Source: a bacterium
GTDB lineage: Bacteria; Hydrothermota; Tepidihabitantia; Tepidihabitantales; Tepidihabitantaceae
Assembly (NCBI GenBank): GCA_046485285.1
Contig: JAWOHE010000071.1
Span: 1-19,633 of the forward strand
DNA: 19,633 nucleotides
Direction: 5' to 3'
Shown here: positions 2,449-18,725 of the stretch, one piece after another
How positions within the stretch are numbered: position 1 is the stretch's first letter
Layout of the letters: each line of letters starts with the position of its first letter
Position numbers and translations under genes: made by a program
Notes under the pieces: generated by a model
The model's database searches: none
What the model saw: the letters and a program-made list of their open reading frames with translations, nothing else
What the model was told of the DNA's origin: nothing

Positions 2449-3113
2449 TGCCCATCACCCTGCGCGTCCGGCCCGGCCGGCCGAATGATTCGGCGGTCCT
2501 GGAGGCCGCCGCGATTATCCGGGCAGGCGGCATCGTCGTGTTCCCGACCGAGACCGTCTACGGCATCGGTATCGGGCTCGACCACGCGGGAAGCGGGGAG
2601 ACGGGAGTGGCCCGCGTCTCCGCGCTGAAGGGACGGCCCGCCGGGATGCCGGTACTGCTCCACTGTGCCTCGGTCCAGGACATCCCGGGATTGGCCCGGT
2701 CGATGCCGCGGTCGGCGCTCGACCTGGTGCAGGCCTTCCTGCCCGGCCCGCTGGCGCTCGTACTGCCCGCATCCGACCGCGTGCCCGCCGCACTGCAGGG
2801 ACCGGGCGGCACGGTCGGCATCCGCGTGGTCGCACTGCCGGTCACCCAGGCGCTCATCCGCCGGGTCGGGACGCCGCTTGCCGGGTCGAGTGCCAACCCG
2901 CACGGCACGCCGGCGACCGCCGGGTTCTCCGAACTCGACGCAGCGATCCTGGCCGGCGCGGACGTCATCCTCGACTCGGGCCGATGTGGAACCGGCCTGG
3001 CCTCGACGGTGGTGGACCTGGCGACCGGCCCGCCGCGACTGCTTCGCGAAGGCGCGATTCCCCGCGCGGCGGTCGAGTCGGTGCTGGACGTGCGGCTGGC
3101 GGAAAGCGGCTAG
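2448..3113 (+). CDS. tsaC: L-threonylcarbamoyladenylate synthase (YrdC domain only)
   Basis: VVFPTETVYGIG, LKGRP, FLPGPLALVL, TVGIRV, SSANPHG, ASTVVD, LLREGAI motifs; TGATG overlap with greA. Confidence 0.93.
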   Translation: MPITLRVRPGRPNDSAVLEAAAIIRAGGIVVFPTETVYGIGIGLDHAGSGETGVARVSALKGRPAGMPVLLHCASVQDIPGLARSMPRSALDLVQAFLPGPLALVLPASDRVPAALQGPGGTVGIRVVALPVTQALIRRVGTPLAGSSANPHGTPATAGFSELDAAILAGADVILDSGRCGTGLASTVVDLATGPPRLLREGAIPRAAVESVLDVRLAESG

Positions 3114-4672
3114 TAGCGGTACTCGAACCGCAGTCCGAAGTCGAGCCCCGAGCGTCTTTCGGTCGTGCCGTCGGCGTTCTCCCGGCGCCACCAGGAGAAG
3201 TCGCCGAGAACCCTGAGGTCGCGCAGGGGACGAAGGCCCGCTTCCAGCCCGAGCCTGAGCTCGCGCTCGATCAGTTCGCCCTCGAGCTCGGACGGGAACC
3301 CGCCGGGAAGCCCGCCTCCCAGCCAGCTCCTGCGCTCGAAGTCGCCGCGGTTGTGATAGCCGCGCCGGACGTGACGGCCGAAGGCACACAGCTCCAGCGG
3401 CTCCGCCGGAAACAGGCCGACCCGGAGGTCGAGCAGGTCGGCGTCAGGCCCAAGGCCGTGGCCGAGCGGCATCCCGTAGTGCTCGTACATGATGTGGTGG
3501 ATTCGGTGGTAGTAGGTGAACGGGTTGATCCGGACGTACTCGGCCCGCACGTCGAGCGGCAGGTTCGGCGCCCAGCGTCCACCGACCTGCACCGCGGTCG
3601 CATTCGGCGGCATCTGCTCGCGCGGTAGGAACTCGAAATTGTCGACGAGCAGAGCCGCGTAGGCCCGGAACGGCGCGAAGTCCAGCACCAGGTCGGCCCC
3701 GACCAGCAGGTTGTCGTCGTGGCCCGAGTTGGCGACCTCGAGGTAGATCGGTATCAACGGGTTCATCATCCCGAAGAAGGAACGCGTCTGGAGCGAGTCC
3801 CACGAGTAGACGTTGGCGAGCACCCCGCCCAGCCGCAGGCGCCGCCACGGCGACAGCTCGACCCGCTGGAGCGAGACGAACCGGTGCTTGAGCCCCCAGC
3901 GGGACAGGTAGGCGGTGAGACCCTGATACTTGAAGCCGCCGTAGTCCGCGACCAGCCCGACATGGTCGAGCGCGGGCGCCTCGTCGCCAAGGATCACCGC
4001 CCCGGTGTAGCCCGGCCCCCAGCGAAACTCGTCGCGGCCGACCCCGAGCCGGAGCCGCCACGGCAGGCGAAACGCCAGCCAGGCCTGCTCGACCTCGAGC
4101 GTCCCGAGGTTCATCCACGACTCGACCCGCGTCCCCCGGACGTAGTGGCCGGCCGAGTCCGCGACCTCGACCGTGTCCGGCCGGAACACCGTGAACTCGG
4201 CCCGTTCCAGGAACGCAAAGTCGGCGCCCGGCCGATTGCCGAGCGTCGCGCCGAGCGAGCCGAACACGTCGGTCCGCCCGCCCAGTCGCCTGACACCGCC
4301 GCGACTGAACAGGTCGGCATCGAACCTGGCGTCCGGGCCGGCCGGCGGGACCGGCAGGCTGAGCACCGGCCGGCGCGGCCCGCCGTATCCGCCGCCCGGC
4401 GCCAGATACTCCCGGAACTCGCGGGCCAGCCGGGCCAGCGCCGCACGCAGTCCGGGCGCGAGCCGTCGGCCCGCCGCCAGCGACTCGGCCTCGAAGGCGA
4501 GCCGGCCGGCCTGGCTCCTCGTCCACGGCCGGCTCGTGGGCGGCGCGGTCCTGACGAACCCTGCCACGCGCAACAGCTCGACGTCGTCGTAGACCGGCGA
4601 GTCGGTCGGGATGTGGGCGATGCTCGCCGCGGCCGTCGCGGCCAGCGCCAGGACCAGCAGGGCGGTTCGCAT
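3110..4672 (-). CDS. Capsule assembly Wzi-family-like outer-membrane beta-barrel protein
   Basis: Signal peptide; N-terminal TRPWTR helical segment; GRDEFRWGPGYTGAVILGDEAP; LGHGLGPDAD; C-terminal aromatic beta-signal LRFEYRY. Confidence 0.75.
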   Translation of the reverse strand: MRTALLVLALAATAAASIAHIPTDSPVYDDVELLRVAGFVRTAPPTSRPWTRSQAGRLAFEAESLAAGRRLAPGLRAALARLAREFREYLAPGGGYGGPRRPVLSLPVPPAGPDARFDADLFSRGGVRRLGGRTDVFGSLGATLGNRPGADFAFLERAEFTVFRPDTVEVADSAGHYVRGTRVESWMNLGTLEVEQAWLAFRLPWRLRLGVGRDEFRWGPGYTGAVILGDEAPALDHVGLVADYGGFKYQGLTAYLSRWGLKHRFVSLQRVELSPWRRLRLGGVLANVYSWDSLQTRSFFGMMNPLIPIYLEVANSGHDDNLLVGADLVLDFAPFRAYAALLVDNFEFLPREQMPPNATAVQVGGRWAPNLPLDVRAEYVRINPFTYYHRIHHIMYEHYGMPLGHGLGPDADLLDLRVGLFPAEPLELCAFGRHVRRGYHNRGDFERRSWLGGGLPGGFPSELEGELIERELRLGLEAGLRPLRDLRVLGDFSWWRRENADGTTERRSGLDFGLRFEYRY

Positions 4673-4679
4673 CTTCGCG

Positions 4680-5309
4680 CTAGCGGATGACGCCGAGCCA
4701 GTCCCGGAGCAGGAACTGCAGCCGGCCGATCAGGAGCGACATCCGCGCCATCACCGTGTAGCCGAACGATGCCCCGAACCCGACCATCAGGAAGACGACG
4801 CCGGTCTCGGACGCGACCTTGAGCGCGCCCTTGTGCTCGCGCGAGAAAAAGAAGTAGAAAACCGAACAGACGACGCCGACGAACGATATCAGCGCGCCGA
4901 GCAGGACATCCCAGCGCGAGAAGTCCGCGGGCGTCAAGAGCGAGCCCTGGATCTGCTTGATGACGTTGGTCTGGAAGAACGCCGGGATCGCCACGCCCGA
5001 GGCCCAGCCGAGCACGAACGCCATCGGGAACCGGATCAGCCAGGAGACCTTCGGGACGAACCGCGCGAAGTAGCAGAGCCCGAGCCCGAACGGGATGATG
5101 TAGACGAGCTGACCCTCGCGGAACAGCGGCGTCACGAGGTCCGGGTAGACCGAGTTGTACCACGTCAGCGCGATGGTGTAGCCGACCGAGACCCCGACGA
5201 ACAGGTGCTCGCAGAACTTGTAGAACGGGTTGTCCTTCCACAGGAACGAGAAGATGCCGAGTGTCAGGATGGCGGCAAGCCAGGTCAGGATGCTGGTCGA
5301 GACGTGCAT
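4680..5309 (-). CDS. Uncharacterised 6-TM membrane protein (209 aa; cluster subunit D)
   Basis: Start taken as ATG 5309 (MHVSTSILTW...), TGATG-coupled to the upstream gene; hydrophobic; KDNPFYKFCEHLFVGVSVGY and FGASFGYTVMARMSLLIGR motifs. Confidence 0.88.
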   Translation of the reverse strand: MHVSTSILTWLAAILTLGIFSFLWKDNPFYKFCEHLFVGVSVGYTIALTWYNSVYPDLVTPLFREGQLVYIIPFGLGLCYFARFVPKVSWLIRFPMAFVLGWASGVAIPAFFQTNVIKQIQGSLLTPADFSRWDVLLGALISFVGVVCSVFYFFFSREHKGALKVASETGVVFLMVGFGASFGYTVMARMSLLIGRLQFLLRDWLGVIR

Positions 5310-6151
5310 CACGCCCTCCGCTTCCGGGTCGCGAAGTAGGCGACGTTGCCGATGACGACCAGCAGCATTATCACCACGTGCGCGAGCGACTGCGAGTCCA
5401 TCGCCGCCACCGCCGGCATGTAGCCCCGGCTGTAGCCGGCCTTCTGGATCATCACCTCGTACTCGGCCCCGCCCTTCATCCCGGCGAGCATCCCGGTGAG
5501 CTGGCCGCTCTGCAGGTAGGGATAGACGTCCGCGGCCGAGACCGCGGTCACCCCGGCGCCGACCTTCATCCCGTAGCGCGACTGGGCGTAGAGCAGCCAG
5601 TCGCGGTAGCCCGGGTCGCCGGCCGATATCGCCACCGCCATCGCGATATCGCGCAGCTTCGTCACCTCGCGCATCATCGCCAGCGACTCGAGCGGGTGCC
5701 CGTAGTAGTCGAGCGCGAAGACGTTGCGGATGCTCTCGCCCATCCCGAGAATCACCGCGTCGACCCCGGCCTTCCAGCCGAGGTAGACGACGTCCTCGCC
5801 GTAGACCTTGCCGTACTCGGGCGCGACCTCCTGCACCGCCTGGTCGGCGAGCCCGGCCCCGGTCACCCAGAGCCCGCACAGCACCACCCTGACGTCGCGC
5901 GCGAAGGCGTGGCGCATCAGCCCGACCAGCATCGGGTAGAGCTCCGGCATCGAGCTCGGGTCGAAATCCACCGAAATCAAGAGTGTCTGGCCGGCCGGGA
6001 TTGCGTCAACCGCCTCGAACAACGCCTGTGCCCGCGGCCCTGACGACACGCCCAGCCCGAGCGGCACGACCAGCGGGAAGGTCACCAGCGCCGCCATTAC
6101 GAGGAAGATGACCCGGCGGTCGATCCTCTGCAGCAGCTCGAAGAACCTCAC
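5309..6151 (-). CDS. Uncharacterised protein with N- and C-terminal TM anchors around an alpha/beta domain (280 aa; subunit C)
   Basis: GTG 6151 overlaps the upstream stop (GTGA); RIDRRVIFLV.. TM, DVVYLGW, GMKGGAEYE, MDSQSLAH + TM + RKRRA. Confidence 0.88.
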   Translation of the reverse strand: MRFFELLQRIDRRVIFLVMAALVTFPLVVPLGLGVSSGPRAQALFEAVDAIPAGQTLLISVDFDPSSMPELYPMLVGLMRHAFARDVRVVLCGLWVTGAGLADQAVQEVAPEYGKVYGEDVVYLGWKAGVDAVILGMGESIRNVFALDYYGHPLESLAMMREVTKLRDIAMAVAISAGDPGYRDWLLYAQSRYGMKVGAGVTAVSAADVYPYLQSGQLTGMLAGMKGGAEYEVMIQKAGYSRGYMPAVAAMDSQSLAHVVIMLLVVIGNVAYFATRKRRA

Positions 6152-6777
6152 GACTTCCCGCCCCCCAGCCAGCCGCGCTCGATGCCGAGAATCACCTTGA
6201 GCGAGGTCGCGATCGCGCCCAGCGCGACGCCGAACAGGATTCCCCGCTTCGCCGCCATGTTCGGGACCGAGAGCACCCACTCGGCGATGTCGGGCAGTTT
6301 GTCCCACATCACCCGCCCCACCGGCACCATCCCCAGCATCACGATGAACGCCGCGACGAGCAGCAGCGCCGCCTCCCTGGTCCGCGCCCGGAACGCCCGG
6401 TAGGCGGCCGAGGCCATGTAGAACGCGAGGATCGCGAACATCGAGGCGTTCAGCGGCACCAGCAGGTTCTTGAACACGACCTCCTGCAGCGGCGAGCCTG
6501 GCCGCACGCCCCAGCCCAGGCCGACGACCGTCGTCGCCACCACCGCGACCAGCGTGACGATCGAGTACGGCCAGCCCGCGCGCCTGCGCCGCAACCGGTC
6601 GGCGTGGTAGAGGACGAGACTGCCGACGCCAAGCACGAGCGCGAACGCGGCGACGATCCGAATCCACTTTGTCGTGACGTCGTAGACCGCGACCGAGGCC
6701 GGGTGCGGGACGAAGAACTGGATCATCATCATTACGCCCATCACCAGGCAGATGGCCAGGGGAATCGTCCGGCTCAC
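6148..6777 (-). CDS. Uncharacterised 6-TM membrane protein (209 aa; subunit B)
   Basis: SD-like AGGAGAGG, GTG start; six hydrophobic segments; SMFAILAFYMASAAYRAFRAR, VPNMAAKRGI, LKVILGIER motifs. Confidence 0.88.
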   Translation of the reverse strand: MSRTIPLAICLVMGVMMMIQFFVPHPASVAVYDVTTKWIRIVAAFALVLGVGSLVLYHADRLRRRRAGWPYSIVTLVAVVATTVVGLGWGVRPGSPLQEVVFKNLLVPLNASMFAILAFYMASAAYRAFRARTREAALLLVAAFIVMLGMVPVGRVMWDKLPDIAEWVLSVPNMAAKRGILFGVALGAIATSLKVILGIERGWLGGGKS

Positions 6778-6785
6778 GTCCTCTC

Positions 6786-7904
6786 CTAGCTCGTCTCAAA
6801 CAGGCCGGCGACGCGGCCGAGGAACCCGAGCGCGGGCAGTCGCGACAAGAGCATCAACGCCGACCCGAGGACGATGACCGCGAGGATGATGAGCTTCCCC
6901 AGGTCCTGGCCCTTGAGCGACCCCACCAGCAGCGGCTCGCGCGACAGGTAGGCCGACGCGGCGTAGAGCTCCTCGCCGATGAGCGTGTAGTCGCAGGCGG
7001 TGATGAAGAACGGGAGCTGGAACACCGAATCGGTGCCGGCGATCTGGATCGCGCCGGTCGTCGCGCCGGTCTCGGCGAGAATCAGCGACTCGGCCCAGAA
7101 CGTCCCGAGGAAGAAGTTCGTCGCCGGCTTCTCGCGGACCATCAGCCCGTCCACCGCCGCGGCGTAGGCGAACTGCTCCGAGGTCACGAAGAACACGCTA
7201 TCCTGCCTGAATGCATCCGGCCGCCCGGCCCTCGTGTAGGCCTCGCGGACGACCTCCCTCGCCACGGTGTAGACGATCGGGTCGCGGTTCGGCACGAGCA
7301 GTGTCGAATCGTACTGGGCGATCTTCTTCGCCACCTCGCCGAGGATGTTTATCGAGGCGATTGTCGCGATTTGCGACACGTCGGCCAGCCCGGGGACGTA
7401 GATTATCGGCCGTCCCATCTCGGTCGCCCGGCCGACCGCCTCCTCGACCGCATCCAGCCCGGCGATTCGCCGGATGAAGAGGCTCTTCCCGCGCTTCGCC
7501 TGCTGGATGAAGTAGATGACCAGCGCAAAGAACACCACCATCCCGACGAGAATGTTGATCCGGTCGGTGTTGAAGAACTGCGGCGCGGCTATCGCCTGCG
7601 CCGACGCCTCTGACCATAACGTATCCGCGTCCGTCACCGCTGCGACGCGGTAGCGATAGGCCACGCCGTTCCCCGCGCCCTCGTCGAGGAAGCCCGCGTC
7701 GGTCCCGGGCACGGACGCTATCACCTCGGCCTCGCCGCCCTCGGCCGTCCGCTCGATCAGCCACGCCTCGGCCGCGACACCCGCGCCCGCCTGCCAGCAC
7801 ACGGTGATGCTGCCGCCCCGGTCGTTCGGCGTATCCGCCGCCGTGACCAGGCCCGGCGCCCCGGCCGAATGGACGCCCAGCAGGACGACGAAGAGCGCCA
7901 TCAT
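6786..7904 (-). CDS. FN3-like domain + TM + DUF6754-like domain protein (372 aa; subunit A)
   Basis: ATG 7904 overlaps the MazG-like stop (ATGA); signal peptide; FN3-like (DTPNDRGGSITVCW...FLD...YRYRVAAV); TM; IRRIAGLDAVEEAVGRATEMGRP...DYTLIGEELYAASAYLS, recalled as DUF6754. Confidence 0.85.
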   Translation of the reverse strand: MMALFVVLLGVHSAGAPGLVTAADTPNDRGGSITVCWQAGAGVAAEAWLIERTAEGGEAEVIASVPGTDAGFLDEGAGNGVAYRYRVAAVTDADTLWSEASAQAIAAPQFFNTDRINILVGMVVFFALVIYFIQQAKRGKSLFIRRIAGLDAVEEAVGRATEMGRPIIYVPGLADVSQIATIASINILGEVAKKIAQYDSTLLVPNRDPIVYTVAREVVREAYTRAGRPDAFRQDSVFFVTSEQFAYAAAVDGLMVREKPATNFFLGTFWAESLILAETGATTGAIQIAGTDSVFQLPFFITACDYTLIGEELYAASAYLSREPLLVGSLKGQDLGKLIILAVIVLGSALMLLSRLPALGFLGRVAGLFETS

Positions 7905-8233
7905 CGCGCATCCCCTCGCTGGCCGCCCGCTGGCGCGTCGGCAGGGCCCGGCTCGGCGCAAGCGCAGGGCGTCCCACCGCACTTGGGACAGCCCGACGCG
8001 TATTTCGCGCACGCCACCTCGAGGTCGACGCCCTCAAGCGTCGCGAGGCTCGCCAGCCAGGCCAGCACGTCGGCGAACTCCTCGCGGAGGTTGTCCGGCT
8101 CGCCGCGACGCATCGCCCGCGCCAGCTCGCCGGTCTCCTCGACCAGCCAGCGGAACGTCCCGTCGCGGCCGCGCCGGGAGTCCTTCGCGAAGTACGCCCT
8201 GCGAATCAGCGCCTGGAACTCGGCGATTGTCAC
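7901..8233 (-). CDS. MazG-like nucleotide pyrophosphohydrolase with C-terminal Cys cluster
   Basis: WLVEETGELA and EEFADVLAWLASLA all-alpha NTP-PPase motifs; CPKCGGTPCAC tail. Confidence 0.88.
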   Translation of the reverse strand: MTIAEFQALIRRAYFAKDSRRGRDGTFRWLVEETGELARAMRRGEPDNLREEFADVLAWLASLATLEGVDLEVACAKYASGCPKCGGTPCACAEPGPADAPAGGQRGDAR

Positions 8234-8239
8234 CGCGTC

Positions 8240-8267
8240 AGTATCGGGGAAACGCCCCCGCTGTCAA
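8240..8267 (-). promoter_or_regulatory. Putative internal promoter for the MazG-like gene and membrane cluster
   Basis: TTGACA (8267-8262, overlapping the upstream stop)-N16-GATACT (8245-8240), 6 nt before GTG 8233; no SD. Confidence 0.45.
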
Positions 8268-9337
8268 CACCGTCTTCGCTCGAGCAGGGAAGCGAAAGCC
8301 TCGACGCGGGTCTGGAAGCCGACCTCGCTCGTGTGCTCGTCCAGCGACAGCGACAGGAACGGTATCCTGTAGTCGCGGCTCGCCCGCTCCAGCGCCGGCT
8401 GGACGACCGTGCCCGGCATGCACCCGAACGGGTGGACGTGGATGACGCCGTCATAGCCGGACCGCGCCGCCAGGATCAGGTGGCCGAGCGAGTTCTCGTC
8501 CTCGCCGCCGACGCAGTCCCGCCAGTACCGGCGCGCGGCCCGGCGGGCGCGAACCAGCTCGCCCTTGCCAACCCGAAACCCGTGGAAGCCCAGCCAGCGG
8601 TGCTCGGTCAGGAACGGCTCGACCTCGACCCCGATCTCGCCCAGCCTGGCGATGATGTCGAAGTTGATGAACGGCTCGATCGTGCAGAAGCTCTCCCCGA
8701 CCAGCATCACCCTCGGCACCCGGCCGCGGCCGTCGAGTGGCACCCTCGCGAATGAGCCCGGGATCGACCGCTCCAGCCGAGCCAGCCCGGCGACGCTCCC
8801 GGTCGCCTCGATGGCCCGGACGAGATCCCGGTACGCGGCCCGGCAGTCGCGCGGCCGTGCCGCGCGCGGCATCGTCCGGCGACAGCACTCCTGCGCGCAA
8901 TCGAGCGCCCGCGACTTGTGCCAGCCCAACCGCAACGCCCGCGCCAGCCTGACCGCGGCACGCTCCGTCCGCCCGCCGCTCAGCGCGATGAGCTCGCGGG
9001 CAATCGCCCCGAGACTGTCATGCCGTAGTTCGATCAGCCGGAAGCGATAGCCCCGACCGCGCAGGATCTCGGCCTGCAGCCGCCCGTAGTAGCCGAATCG
9101 GCACGACCACGACCCGCTCACGTAGGCGAGGGTGTCCGCGCCCAGCTCGAGGCTCCGGACCATGTTTCCCAGCGTCAGCTTGAACGGTATGCACATCAGC
9201 TCGGGCGCCAGCCTGACCCCGAGCTCAAGTACCCTTCGGTCCGGCGGCGGCGGCACGACCGGCTCGATGCCCAGCTCGCGCAGAATCGGCGCGAGCACGA
9301 CCCGGATCTCGCCCATGTACGGGAACGCGAGCTTCAT
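8264..9337 (-). CDS. CoA-substrate activase / 2-hydroxyacyl-CoA dehydratase-related Fe-S protein (COG3581-like)
   Basis: MKLAFPYMG, PELMCIPFKLTLGN, SCRFGYY, LVGE, DGVIHVHPFGCMP, LDEHTSEVGFQTRVEAF. Confidence 0.8.
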   Translation of the reverse strand: MKLAFPYMGEIRVVLAPILRELGIEPVVPPPPDRRVLELGVRLAPELMCIPFKLTLGNMVRSLELGADTLAYVSGSWSCRFGYYGRLQAEILRGRGYRFRLIELRHDSLGAIARELIALSGGRTERAAVRLARALRLGWHKSRALDCAQECCRRTMPRAARPRDCRAAYRDLVRAIEATGSVAGLARLERSIPGSFARVPLDGRGRVPRVMLVGESFCTIEPFINFDIIARLGEIGVEVEPFLTEHRWLGFHGFRVGKGELVRARRAARRYWRDCVGGEDENSLGHLILAARSGYDGVIHVHPFGCMPGTVVQPALERASRDYRIPFLSLSLDEHTSEVGFQTRVEAFASLLERRRC

Positions 9338-10278
9338 CGACCGACCGCCGCCGAATCCAGGCGCCGGCTTGCGCGCGGCCGCCTCAGCATCTCGACGAAC
9401 GACTCCAGTCGGGTGGCCAGCCCGCCCGGGCTCGAATGCTCGTCGAATAGGAGCTCGAGAATCGGCATCCCGGCCTCCCGGCCCGGCACCCGCCGCACCG
9501 ACAGCCGTATCAACTCGTTGGTCACCGCCGCCGTACCGCAGGCGAAGCTCGCCGCCAGCACCAGCCCGCCAACCTCGGGGTCGGCGGCCGCCCGAAACGC
9601 GGCTCGCAGCAGCTCACGTTCGAACCGCCAGTTCGGCTCGAAGCACCCCGGCGGCACCGAGTCGGCGACGCCGGGCCGGGCGACAAATGGAGACGCCCCG
9701 GCGCGTCGCAGCGCCGCCACGACACCCATGCTCAACTCGTCGTCGCCCAGCAGGTAATCGTGCCCGACGACAGCGACTCTCGGGCCGCTTGCGTTGGCCG
9801 CGTCAACACCCACCCCGGCTGAGACAACCGACCGCGCCGCGCGCAGGGCGCGGCGCCAGCGACCACCACCGACGCCCAGCGCACGTGCCAACCGGCGGAA
9901 CGACTCGTCCTCGGAATGCGCCCGCTCGTCGAAGACGATTTCGGCCGCCGGCGGCAGGTCGGGCAGGAGCGCGCGGGTCAGGTCCGGCAGGGCCAGCGCC
10001 TTCGGGCAGGCGAACTCGATGTCACCGTCCCGGCGCCAGCACACCAGCCTCGGCAAGAGAAGCCGGTCGACCGAGGGCGCGAGCGTGACCACGTGGCCGA
10101 GGAACGCCTTGACCGGCAGGCACAGCTCGGCCGGGGCAATCCGGATTCCGGCGAGCAGCATCCGGCGGCTGGTCGGCGGTGAGACCCGGACTTCGAAGCC
10201 GAGCCCGGCAATGAAGGACTCCCAGGCAGGCAGGAACCGGTAGGCGTCGAGGGCGCGGCAGATGCCAACAGTCTGCAA
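9334..10278 (-). CDS. Acyl-CoA dehydratase activase-related protein (DUF2229/COG3580-like)
   Basis: VGICRAL, VSPPT, ELCLPVKAFLGHV, ACPKALALPDL, VVGHDY, SFACGT, DEHSSPGGLATRLESFVEML; TTG start. Confidence 0.8.
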   Translation of the reverse strand: MQTVGICRALDAYRFLPAWESFIAGLGFEVRVSPPTSRRMLLAGIRIAPAELCLPVKAFLGHVVTLAPSVDRLLLPRLVCWRRDGDIEFACPKALALPDLTRALLPDLPPAAEIVFDERAHSEDESFRRLARALGVGGGRWRRALRAARSVVSAGVGVDAANASGPRVAVVGHDYLLGDDELSMGVVAALRRAGASPFVARPGVADSVPPGCFEPNWRFERELLRAAFRAAADPEVGGLVLAASFACGTAAVTNELIRLSVRRVPGREAGMPILELLFDEHSSPGGLATRLESFVEMLRRPRASRRLDSAAVGR

Positions 10279-10287
10279 GAGAACCCG

Positions 10288-10355
10288 ATTCTATTGGCGC
10301 GCGCCGGGCAGTCAAACGGCCGGCCGGTTGACTCGGCCGCACCCGGCAATATAGT
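10288..10355. promoter_or_regulatory. Back-to-back divergent sigma70 promoters
   Basis: Minus: TTGACT (10315-10310)-N16-TAGAAT (10293-10288). Plus: TTGACT (10328-10333)-N16-TATAGT (10350-10355). Confidence 0.75.
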
Positions 10356-18038: not shown

Positions 18039-18063
18039 GCCGGCCGGGCGTTCGGCCGGTCAG
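18035..18063. terminator. GC-rich hairpin between convergent ssb and PASTA-TonB genes
   Basis: CCGGCCG-GGCGTT-CGGCCGG (18040-18059), extended by CTGA/TCAG that include both stop codons; no U-tract. Confidence 0.45.
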
Positions 18064-18725
18064 GGCTCGAGCATCGGGTCGCGGGGGGTGCCCGCGGGCG
18101 CGGGCTCGTGCTGTTCCTTGTACTCCCAGTGAAACGGCAACGGAAACCACACCCGCACCGGCGCGTCGTAGTGCTCGGCCGGGTGGAAGCTCGCCCGCAG
18201 GGCGGCGTCGAGCGCGGCCGAATCCGCCTCCGCGTGGCCGGACGACTCGACCAGCTTCGCGGCCAGCACTCCACCGTCGAAATCGACCAGCGCCTCGACC
18301 TGCGCCTTCCCGCTGAACGCGTACTTGAGCAGCTCCGGCGGGTAGCCGGCTCCGACCAGCCGCTTCGGCTCGGGCGCCTTCTGGACCCGATAGAATCCTA
18401 CCTGGTGCCGGAAGTCGCCGAGCAGCGGCAGTGCCGAGTCCTCCCAGTAGCGCAGGACGTGCGGGCAGTTGAACTCCAGCACGACCGTCGACTCGGGCAG
18501 GACCTCGCTCCCCGCGGCCGGCGACTGCCCGGCGACGTGGAACTCCGGAACCTCCGCGGTGTCGACCGCGACCTGCCGGTAGCGCACCGGCACGCCCAGC
18601 CCGCGCACTGCCCGGCTCGCCGGGTAGAGCGCCTCGCCGACTAGGGCCGGCATCGTCACCGCGCCAGAGTCCTGCGCGCCGGCGACCGCCGCCAGCACGA
18701 CACAGACCAGCAGTAGCGTGCGCAC
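18060..18725 (-). CDS. Exported PASTA domain + TonB C-terminal domain protein
   Basis: Signal peptide; PASTA (TMPALVG...VAGQSPAAGSEV....TVVL); TonB_C (YPP...SGKAQVEALVDFDGGV...SSG...DSAALDAA...FHPA...PVRVW..LPF). Confidence 0.82.
   Translation of the reverse strand: MRTLLLVCVVLAAVAGAQDSGAVTMPALVGEALYPASRAVRGLGVPVRYRQVAVDTAEVPEFHVAGQSPAAGSEVLPESTVVLEFNCPHVLRYWEDSALPLLGDFRHQVGFYRVQKAPEPKRLVGAGYPPELLKYAFSGKAQVEALVDFDGGVLAAKLVESSGHAEADSAALDAALRASFHPAEHYDAPVRVWFPLPFHWEYKEQHEPAPAGTPRDPMLEP

Follow-up and report, generated by a model that had tools for sequence, protein, structure and literature searches.

A conserved four-gene membrane module built around DUF6754: a candidate inner-membrane translocase-like complex with oppositely oriented subunits

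Introduction

The membrane core of the Rnf complex and of Na+-NQR comprises RnfA and RnfE or NqrD and NqrE, proteins of about 200 aa with six transmembrane (TM) segments and opposite orientation, together with a TM-anchored domain on each face of the membrane; cysteine residues within the membrane hold an Fe-S centre between the two subunits. SMR heterodimers (EbrAB) and Fluc are formed by four-TM proteins of about 100–130 aa that are clear paralogues. The polysaccharide co-polymerases (PCPs; Wzz and Wzc) have the topology TM, periplasmic domain, TM, with both ends cytoplasmic. We describe here four consecutive genes, termed A, B, C and D, at positions 4680–7904 on the minus strand of contig JAWOHE010000071.1 (assembly GCA_046485285.1), from a bacterium of the order Tepidihabitantales (Hydrothermota). 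The whole stretch analysed, 19 633 nucleotides, is referred to as the window. We propose that the four products may form a new inner-membrane translocase-like complex with transport or translocation as its function, a reading to which we give a probability of roughly 0.45.

The locus resembles the Rnf/Na+-NQR core in that two six-TM subunits of about 200 aa, predicted here to be opposite in orientation, are co-encoded with one TM-anchored domain for each face of the membrane. It departs from that core in its anchoring, A and C having two TM helices apiece instead of one. B and D, unlike RnfE and RnfA (98.9% in hhalign), display no detectable mutual homology. The locus also shows no conserved cysteine and no Fe-S or flavin-binding domain. 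The locus shares with SMR heterodimers and Fluc two membrane subunits of similar size, encoded side by side and, in the present case by prediction, opposite in orientation, but B and D possess six TM segments and 209 aa, lack detectable homology and are accompanied by two domain-bearing subunits. A third comparison is with the group 1 capsule locus (wzi-wza-wzb-wzc), since a Wzi-family outer-membrane barrel is co-encoded and the topology of C is PCP-like. Here, however, no Wza, Wzb, Wzc, Wzx or Wzy was found among the ten window neighbours scanned or in the Pfam tallies of flanking genes, the Wzi-like gene accompanies only one of three paralogous clusters, and C is modelled as a compact Rossmann-like domain lacking the long helical hairpin of PCPs. 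The Pfam entry for DUF6754 (PF20539), the family to which A belongs, names the domain alone; for its partners B, C and D neither Pfam nor NCBIfam offers a model.

Gene layout and linkage across genomes

The four open reading frames lie where a sequence-only reading of the window had placed them, and the junctions ATGA, 8 bp gap, GTGA and TGATG are as it gave them. Gene A (372 aa; 6786–7904) ends in TAG, followed by 8 bp (GAGAGGAC) and the GTG start of gene B (209 aa; 6148–6777). Genes B and C (280 aa; 5309–6151) overlap through GTGA, and C and D (209 aa; 4680–5309) through TGATG. The tight coupling is real but is not confined to the four genes: ATGA is the overlap of the stop codon of an upstream MazG-like gene with the start of A, and only 7 bp separate the stop codon of D from the ATG of a downstream Wzi-like gene. 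The G+C content of the window is about 70%, the sources named for close homologues point to a genome of candidate division WOR-3, and third-position G+C is high along the whole minus-strand run from the MazG-like gene through A, B, C and D to the Wzi-like gene. The identical lengths of B and D hold in the window but are a coincidence of this copy, the homologues ranging from 202 to 233 aa for B and from 199 to 287 aa for D.

Matches for A, B, C and D were collected from 41 related WOR-3 genomes of the same order and their coordinates were merged, short second pieces of genes already listed being dropped (rows kept: A, 123/123; B, 109/142; C, 108/109; D, 107/112). Each of the four is present in all 41 genomes. 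The 123 DUF6754 matches resolve into 96 A-B-C-D clusters and six A-A-B-C-D arrangements; the rest are 11 solo A genes together with some partial clusters, lying for the most part at contig ends. A typical genome of the order carries three paralogous clusters; in the source genome there are two complete clusters, that of the window and one on a different contig, besides a solo A.

The arrangement extends well beyond the order. A pattern scan of 185 579 species genomes gave at least 559 relatives, and the best 80 loci, from about 12 phyla, were analysed. They come from genomes titled WOR-3, Stahlbacteria, Edwardsbacteria, Cloacimonadota, Zixibacteria, Poribacteria, Planctomycetota, Coatesbacteria, Fermentibacteraceae, Aegiribacteria, CSSED10-310 and Nitrospiria. 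These loci contain 100 A genes, 80 of which are followed by B-C-D, while 14 are cut by the end of the locus, two form A-A with a cluster and four are solo. At least one complete cluster is present in 67 of the 80 loci, and 12 carry two or three in tandem. The sequence-only reading had staked its proposal on co-occurrence of the four genes across genomes, and the fixed order A-B-C-D, seen at 102 of the 123 loci within the order and at 80 of the 100 in the cross-phylum sample, bears that co-occurrence out.

The clusters also appear to evolve as units. Pairwise distance matrices of the four families, calculated from 52 complete clusters, correlate with r of 0.77–0.88, although shared genome history overstates the independence of these values. 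Tandem copies are nearer to clusters of other genomes than to their own tandem neighbour in 11–13 of 13 cases. Taken together, the correlation and the relationships of the tandem copies indicate that duplication of entire clusters is ancient and that each has since been passed on as a unit. We are confident that A, B, C and D constitute one co-functioning module.

Within the phylum, 135 of the 151 genomes sampled, and 76 of 77 genera, have a DUF6754 match; copy number runs from 1 to 6 in genomes of 1.5–3 Mb. The C family is likewise large, with 5347 representatives at E ≤ 0.001 among 1.84 billion protein cluster representatives. All but one of the DUF6754-negative genomes of the phylum belong to a single genus. 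In that genus (g41 in our numbering, genomes G049–G145) no match was found in any of the 15 sampled genomes, which are 62–95% complete, and it presents a natural loss group.

Families and folds of the four proteins

Protein A is a full-length member of DUF6754, with 407.6 bits against a gathering cut-off of 27 (E = 2.2e-122; profile positions 3–248 of 257). The match covers residues 108–353 (6846–7583, minus strand) and takes in the first TM segment, six β-α units and the second TM segment. For B, C and D nothing rose above threshold in Pfam or NCBIfam.

AlphaFold2 models were calculated for A and C from alignments of 88 and 81 natural homologues, respectively. The model of A, with a predicted local distance difference test score (pLDDT) of 92.0, consists of a signal peptide, a fibronectin type III (Fn3) sandwich at residues 18–106, a TM helix at 113–137, six β-α units at 148–321, a second TM helix at 324–353 and a short tail. 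The N-terminal part is a seven-stranded β-sandwich that superposes on solved Fn3 domains; the domain occupies about residues 14–110, encoded at 7575–7865 (minus strand). In C (pLDDT 93.4) a TM helix at residues 12–28 precedes an α/β domain at 39–237, in which six main strands alternate with helices to give a Rossmann-like domain of about 200 aa, and a second TM helix follows at 246–279. The description of both proteins as an α/β domain between TM segments, put forward from the letters of the window, is therefore supported by confident models. Both B and D had been taken to be six-TM proteins. Six hydrophobic segments are indeed evident in B, but D presents four strong and two weakly hydrophobic ones.

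The conserved residues of A and C are distributed as expected of ligand-binding domains, since the invariant positions sit after strands, where Rossmann-like folds bind ligands. The A core carries many invariant charged residues at such positions, and across phyla the homologues are 46–72% identical to the window protein over the whole of A. The second TM helix of C carries an invariant His258 and Asn269.

Fold searches of the PDB with the whole model of A gave lists filled by matches to Fn3. Among the Foldseek results, those to the Nir2 C-terminal domain superpose with a root-mean-square deviation of about 27. With B and D, no usable match was found among the named clusters of the protein atlas.

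Membrane topology

Topology was assigned from counts of lysine and arginine (K/R) residues flanking the TM segments, together with natural fusions and extensions. In A, a K/R-rich stretch succeeds the TM helix behind the Fn3 domain, and the core is placed inside in 84 of 87 sequences. Long forms of A are consistent with this: in all 12 that were fetched, of 873 found, only the exported N-terminal part is enlarged, by extra Fn3 repeats or, in Eremiobacterota, by PQQ-like propellers. The two short ends of C are K/R-rich in 80 of 80 sequences, which places the ends inside and the domain in the periplasm. Further support comes from P0185, an A protein of 1071 aa whose exported part includes a C-like domain; insertions break this domain up, and the C profile matches it as three fragments (residues 81–491). 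This fusion assigns the C domain to the ectodomain side and also ties C to A as a Rosetta-stone link. These predictions put the two soluble domains on opposite faces of the membrane, the A core in the cytoplasm and the C domain in the periplasm.

The K/R distribution had been said to predict opposite orientations within each pair. It does so clearly for the flanks of A and C and for B, where both termini lie inside in 83 of 84 sequences, but for D the counts are ambiguous. The orientation of D can be approached instead through its natural long forms, of which 10 were fetched from 40 found. Two of these have a signal anchor and a soluble stretch ahead of D, which fits an N-out arrangement. Two others are C-D fusions whose linker holds a single extra hydrophobic segment; the source of one is Stratiformator vulcanicus, a cultured planctomycete. 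A further three carry one added C-terminal hydrophobic segment and then a K/R tail, which fits C-out. Two possess only an insertion in loop 4 and are neutral on orientation. In sum, seven of the ten point to N-out and C-out, two are neutral and one points the other way. Protein D is most likely N-out and C-out, opposite in orientation to the N-in protein B, and we consider it probable that the topology is inverted within both pairs, as had been predicted.

The long forms of D present some unusual additions. P0153, P0155 and P0156 have a large insertion in loop 4 that is annotated as PF12836 (HHH_3, ComEA-like) and PF01339; P0153, the only one of the three to have been fetched, also has an extra C-terminal TM segment. 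In other long forms the insertions are of 250–400 aa, and those of P0127 and P0133 look charged and coiled-coil-like.

Relationships within the A/C and B/D pairs

The sequence-only reading had described the cluster as two pairs of paralogues, and the sequences lend this part of it no support. With BLASTP neither A and C nor B and D gave a match better than E = 2. In hhalign the pairs reached 1.7% (A against C, with only a TM helix aligned) and 2.6% (B against D), a second run of our own agreeing, and the cores of A and C compared alone reached 0.6%. The control pair RnfE and RnfA, from ten related genomes, reached 98.9% in the same type of comparison (E = 1.5e-17 over 162 columns). A search for internal 3+3 repeats in B and D gave 1.1–1.3% for the halves, and the N-terminal half of B against the C-terminal half of D gave 11% (P = 0.0028, not significant). 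At the level of sequence, homology within either pair is not detectable.

What A and C do share in the AlphaFold2 models is the order of their elements, with six β-α units running straight into a TM helix. Six β-α units in series are common among Rossmann-like folds. We give a low probability to the idea that A-B and C-D are ancient inverted duplicates; the module would then be a pseudo-twofold heterotetramer, with one of two related Rossmann-like domains on each face of the membrane.

The Wzi-like gene

The gene that directly follows D (3110–4672, minus strand) encodes a Wzi-like outer-membrane protein of 520 aa. It matches PF14052 (Caps_assemb_Wzi) with 46.6 bits against a cut-off of 30.1 (E = 3.2e-12; profile positions 64–383 of 392). 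Of the 41 genomes of the order, 35 have some Wzi-like match, and in 29 the gene immediately follows D on its strand, 11–684 bp from the end of the match. This recurrence makes of the window paralogue a five-gene unit reaching to the outer membrane, and from it we infer a functional link between this paralogue and that membrane.

Proposed mechanism and alternative explanations

We infer that A, B, C and D are subunits of one inner-membrane complex, which would comprise about 16 TM helices in two topologically inverted halves. One half would be formed by A, with its exported Fn3 head and cytoplasmic Rossmann-like core, together with the N-in, six-TM protein B. The other would be formed by C, with its periplasmic Rossmann-like domain, and the N-out, six-TM protein D. 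In our proposal the conserved pocket of the A core would bind or process a ligand in the cytoplasm. The ligand would cross the membrane by way of the B and D helices, and in the periplasm the C domain, together with the variable A ectodomain, would receive it or supply it. For the window paralogue there would be an onward link to the co-encoded Wzi-like barrel. Since no ATPase is encoded, the drive would have to come from a gradient or from chemistry at A. Complex prediction with A (residues 106–372), B and C gave 0.77, 0.78 and 0.77 with D as the partner and 0.00 and 0.00 when the partner was replaced; a control in which C was replaced still gave 0.73, so that these values speak neither for nor against binding.

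Several observations weigh against a translocase. Firstly, none of the four proteins matches an ABC, MFS, TRAP or other transporter family, a channel or an energy-coupling family above cut-off in Pfam or NCBIfam. The sequence-only reading had likewise reported no ABC, MFS, TRAP or redox motif, and no ABC, MFS, TRAP, ATPase, kinase or redox domain was found in the cluster or in the neighbouring genes scanned. Secondly, the invariant or near-invariant columns, taken from 85 sequences for B and from 69 for D, include no TM-embedded acidic residue, a lack not often seen in ion-coupled carriers. Thirdly, the best-conserved part of the assembly is the cytoplasmic A core and not the membrane subunits, a pattern more like that of an enzyme than of a carrier. 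Profile searches of the PDB, made with A and C only, returned Fn3 alone for A and nothing for C. The inverted arrangement has its own difficulties: the K/R counts for D divide 34 to 22 among 68 sequences, and one C-D fusion, P0126, has a linker of 14 residues with no extra TM segment, which would put D N-in. Finally, conserved functional neighbours are few: the Wzi-like gene within the order, and 3-dehydroquinate-synthase (DHQS)-like and TIM-barrel genes in Poribacteria. Across the 80 cross-phylum loci no neighbour is universal, and besides the two genes of Poribacteria just PurF-like genes recur.

Two of these points lend themselves to the strongest rival, which we nevertheless judge unlikely, namely that the module is a membrane-anchored enzyme complex of biosynthesis or envelope biogenesis. 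In such a complex the A core would act catalytically at the cytoplasmic face, for example on a lipid-linked or nucleotide-activated precursor, B and D would hold the lipid or polymer and C would finish or position the periplasmic product, to be delivered by way of the Wzi-like barrel to the outer membrane. The strong conservation of the A core (46–72% identity over the whole of A) with its invariant charged residues, and the lack of TM-embedded acidic residues at the conserved columns of B and D, are what such a complex might display. Capsule assembly, moreover, gave its name to the Wzi family, whose gene comes after D in 29 of the 41 genomes. Profile searches of Pfam, NCBIfam and the PDB, however, detected no family or motif of a glycosyltransferase, acyltransferase, ligase or phosphotransferase. 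Machines of this kind are usually single-copy, whereas here there are one to six copies per genome and tandem arrays. The one suggestive adjacency in the source genome, that of a solo A with a PMT_2 and TPR membrane protein, is not preserved in relatives.

The modular ectodomain of A, with variable numbers of Fn3 domains, PQQ-like β-propellers and other additions on a constant core, follows a pattern familiar from receptors. It raises the question of whether the module is a transmembrane sensing or signalling device, in which the A ectodomain and periplasmic C would detect an envelope or external cue and the A core would relay it. We think this improbable. No kinase, cyclase, HAMP, PAS, receiver or DNA-binding domain is present in or beside the cluster, a sensor has no need of two six-TM subunits, and near-universal occurrence in several copies in genomes of 1.5–3 Mb is better suited to core physiology.

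The architecture predicted here also matches well that of Rnf/Nqr, and the module could be a distant relative of that core, cofactor-poor or differently cofactored, that couples a redox or other reaction to the movement of ions; A would then correspond to RnfB or NqrF, C to RnfG or NqrC, and B and D to RnfA/E or NqrD/E. This we consider very improbable. The Rnf/Nqr profile PF02508 matches neither B nor D at E ≤ 1. In 20 of 21 related genomes it finds exactly two true Rnf genes, located elsewhere and never at the B or D loci. Alignment of B or D with RnfA or RnfE in hhalign gave at most 1.2%. No cysteine that could hold an Fe-S centre occurs in the invariant or near-invariant columns of B or D, and neither A nor C showed an Fe-S or flavin domain. 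The source genome, which is 88% complete, has no PF02508 match, against two in each of 20 relatives, probably owing to a gap in the assembly.

That four unrelated membrane proteins are merely co-transcribed and do not assemble is hardly credible: the genes keep a fixed order in about 12 phyla, duplication has involved the cluster as a unit, the distance matrices correlate, and natural fusions of C to D and of the C domain to A exist.

Other neighbouring genes

Upstream of A lies the MazG-like nucleotide pyrophosphohydrolase gene (7901–8233, minus strand; 110 aa), which matches PF03819 with E = 6.1e-12. Just upstream of it, at 8240–8267 on the minus strand, is a match to a σ70-like promoter (TTGACA, a 16-nucleotide spacer and GATACT), which is a possible operon start. 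A scan for such sites gave three matches in 8 kb against 0.3 expected, by the consensus only, which may not represent the kind of promoter used in this phylum. The MazG-like gene is immediately preceded by two adjacent genes on the minus strand, at 8264–9337 and 9334–10278, with DUF2229/HGD-D matches, a type known as CoA enzyme activase or 2-hydroxyglutaryl-CoA dehydratase D-component. They have a promoter-like site of their own at 10288–10315.

Elsewhere the flanks of the module vary. In the Poribacteria loci (L059–L093) a DHQS-like gene recurs on the upstream side, accounting for 11 of the 57 neighbours scanned there, and on the downstream side a TIM barrel of the xylose-isomerase-like kind accounts for 12 of 45, which may signify a link to sugars or cyclitols or may be only synteny of the lineage. 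PurF-like genes lie upstream of another paralogue in 4 of 57 cases.

The third DUF6754 gene of the source genome (locus L013, 5449–8454) is the solo A. It has a PurF-like gene upstream and a membrane protein with PMT_2 and TPR domains downstream. The latter was considered as a functional partner and set aside because the orthologues in relatives do not adjoin DUF6754; the adjacency may have arisen by rearrangement or from an assembly join.

Two other genes of the window deserve mention. At 499–2448 on the plus strand a protein of 649 aa is encoded in which the N- and C-terminal domains of GreA/GreB occupy residues 500–634, behind an N-terminal extension of about 500 aa. At 18060–18725 on the minus strand a protein of 221 aa combines PASTA with a TonB C-terminal domain, an unusual pairing.

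Novelty and biological significance

We found no mention of DUF6754 or PF20539 in the roughly 8.4 million papers and preprints searched, whose supplementary files may hold mentions, and a broader search around WOR-3 brought up no relevant entry. The A-B-C-D module would be new, in that three of its subunits belong to no described family and the fourth is a DUF, and its function is proposed here from sequence. Should A-B and C-D prove to be inverted duplicates, the module would be the founding member of a new superfamily of transporters or translocases, near-universal in WOR-3, spread widely among candidate phyla of the FCB/PVC type and diversified into several substrate-specific copies within each genome, one of them connected to a Wzi-like outer-membrane channel. 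It would then also provide a new example of membrane machines that arise by duplication with inversion of topology.

The presence of the module in Stratiformator vulcanicus, a cultured organism, places it within experimental reach. Besides WOR-3, it occurs in Cloacimonadota, Zixibacteria, Poribacteria, Planctomycetota, Eremiobacterota and other phyla. Its conservation and frequent duplication suggest that it is likely to be central to feeding or to the building of the envelope in these abundant and mostly uncultured organisms.

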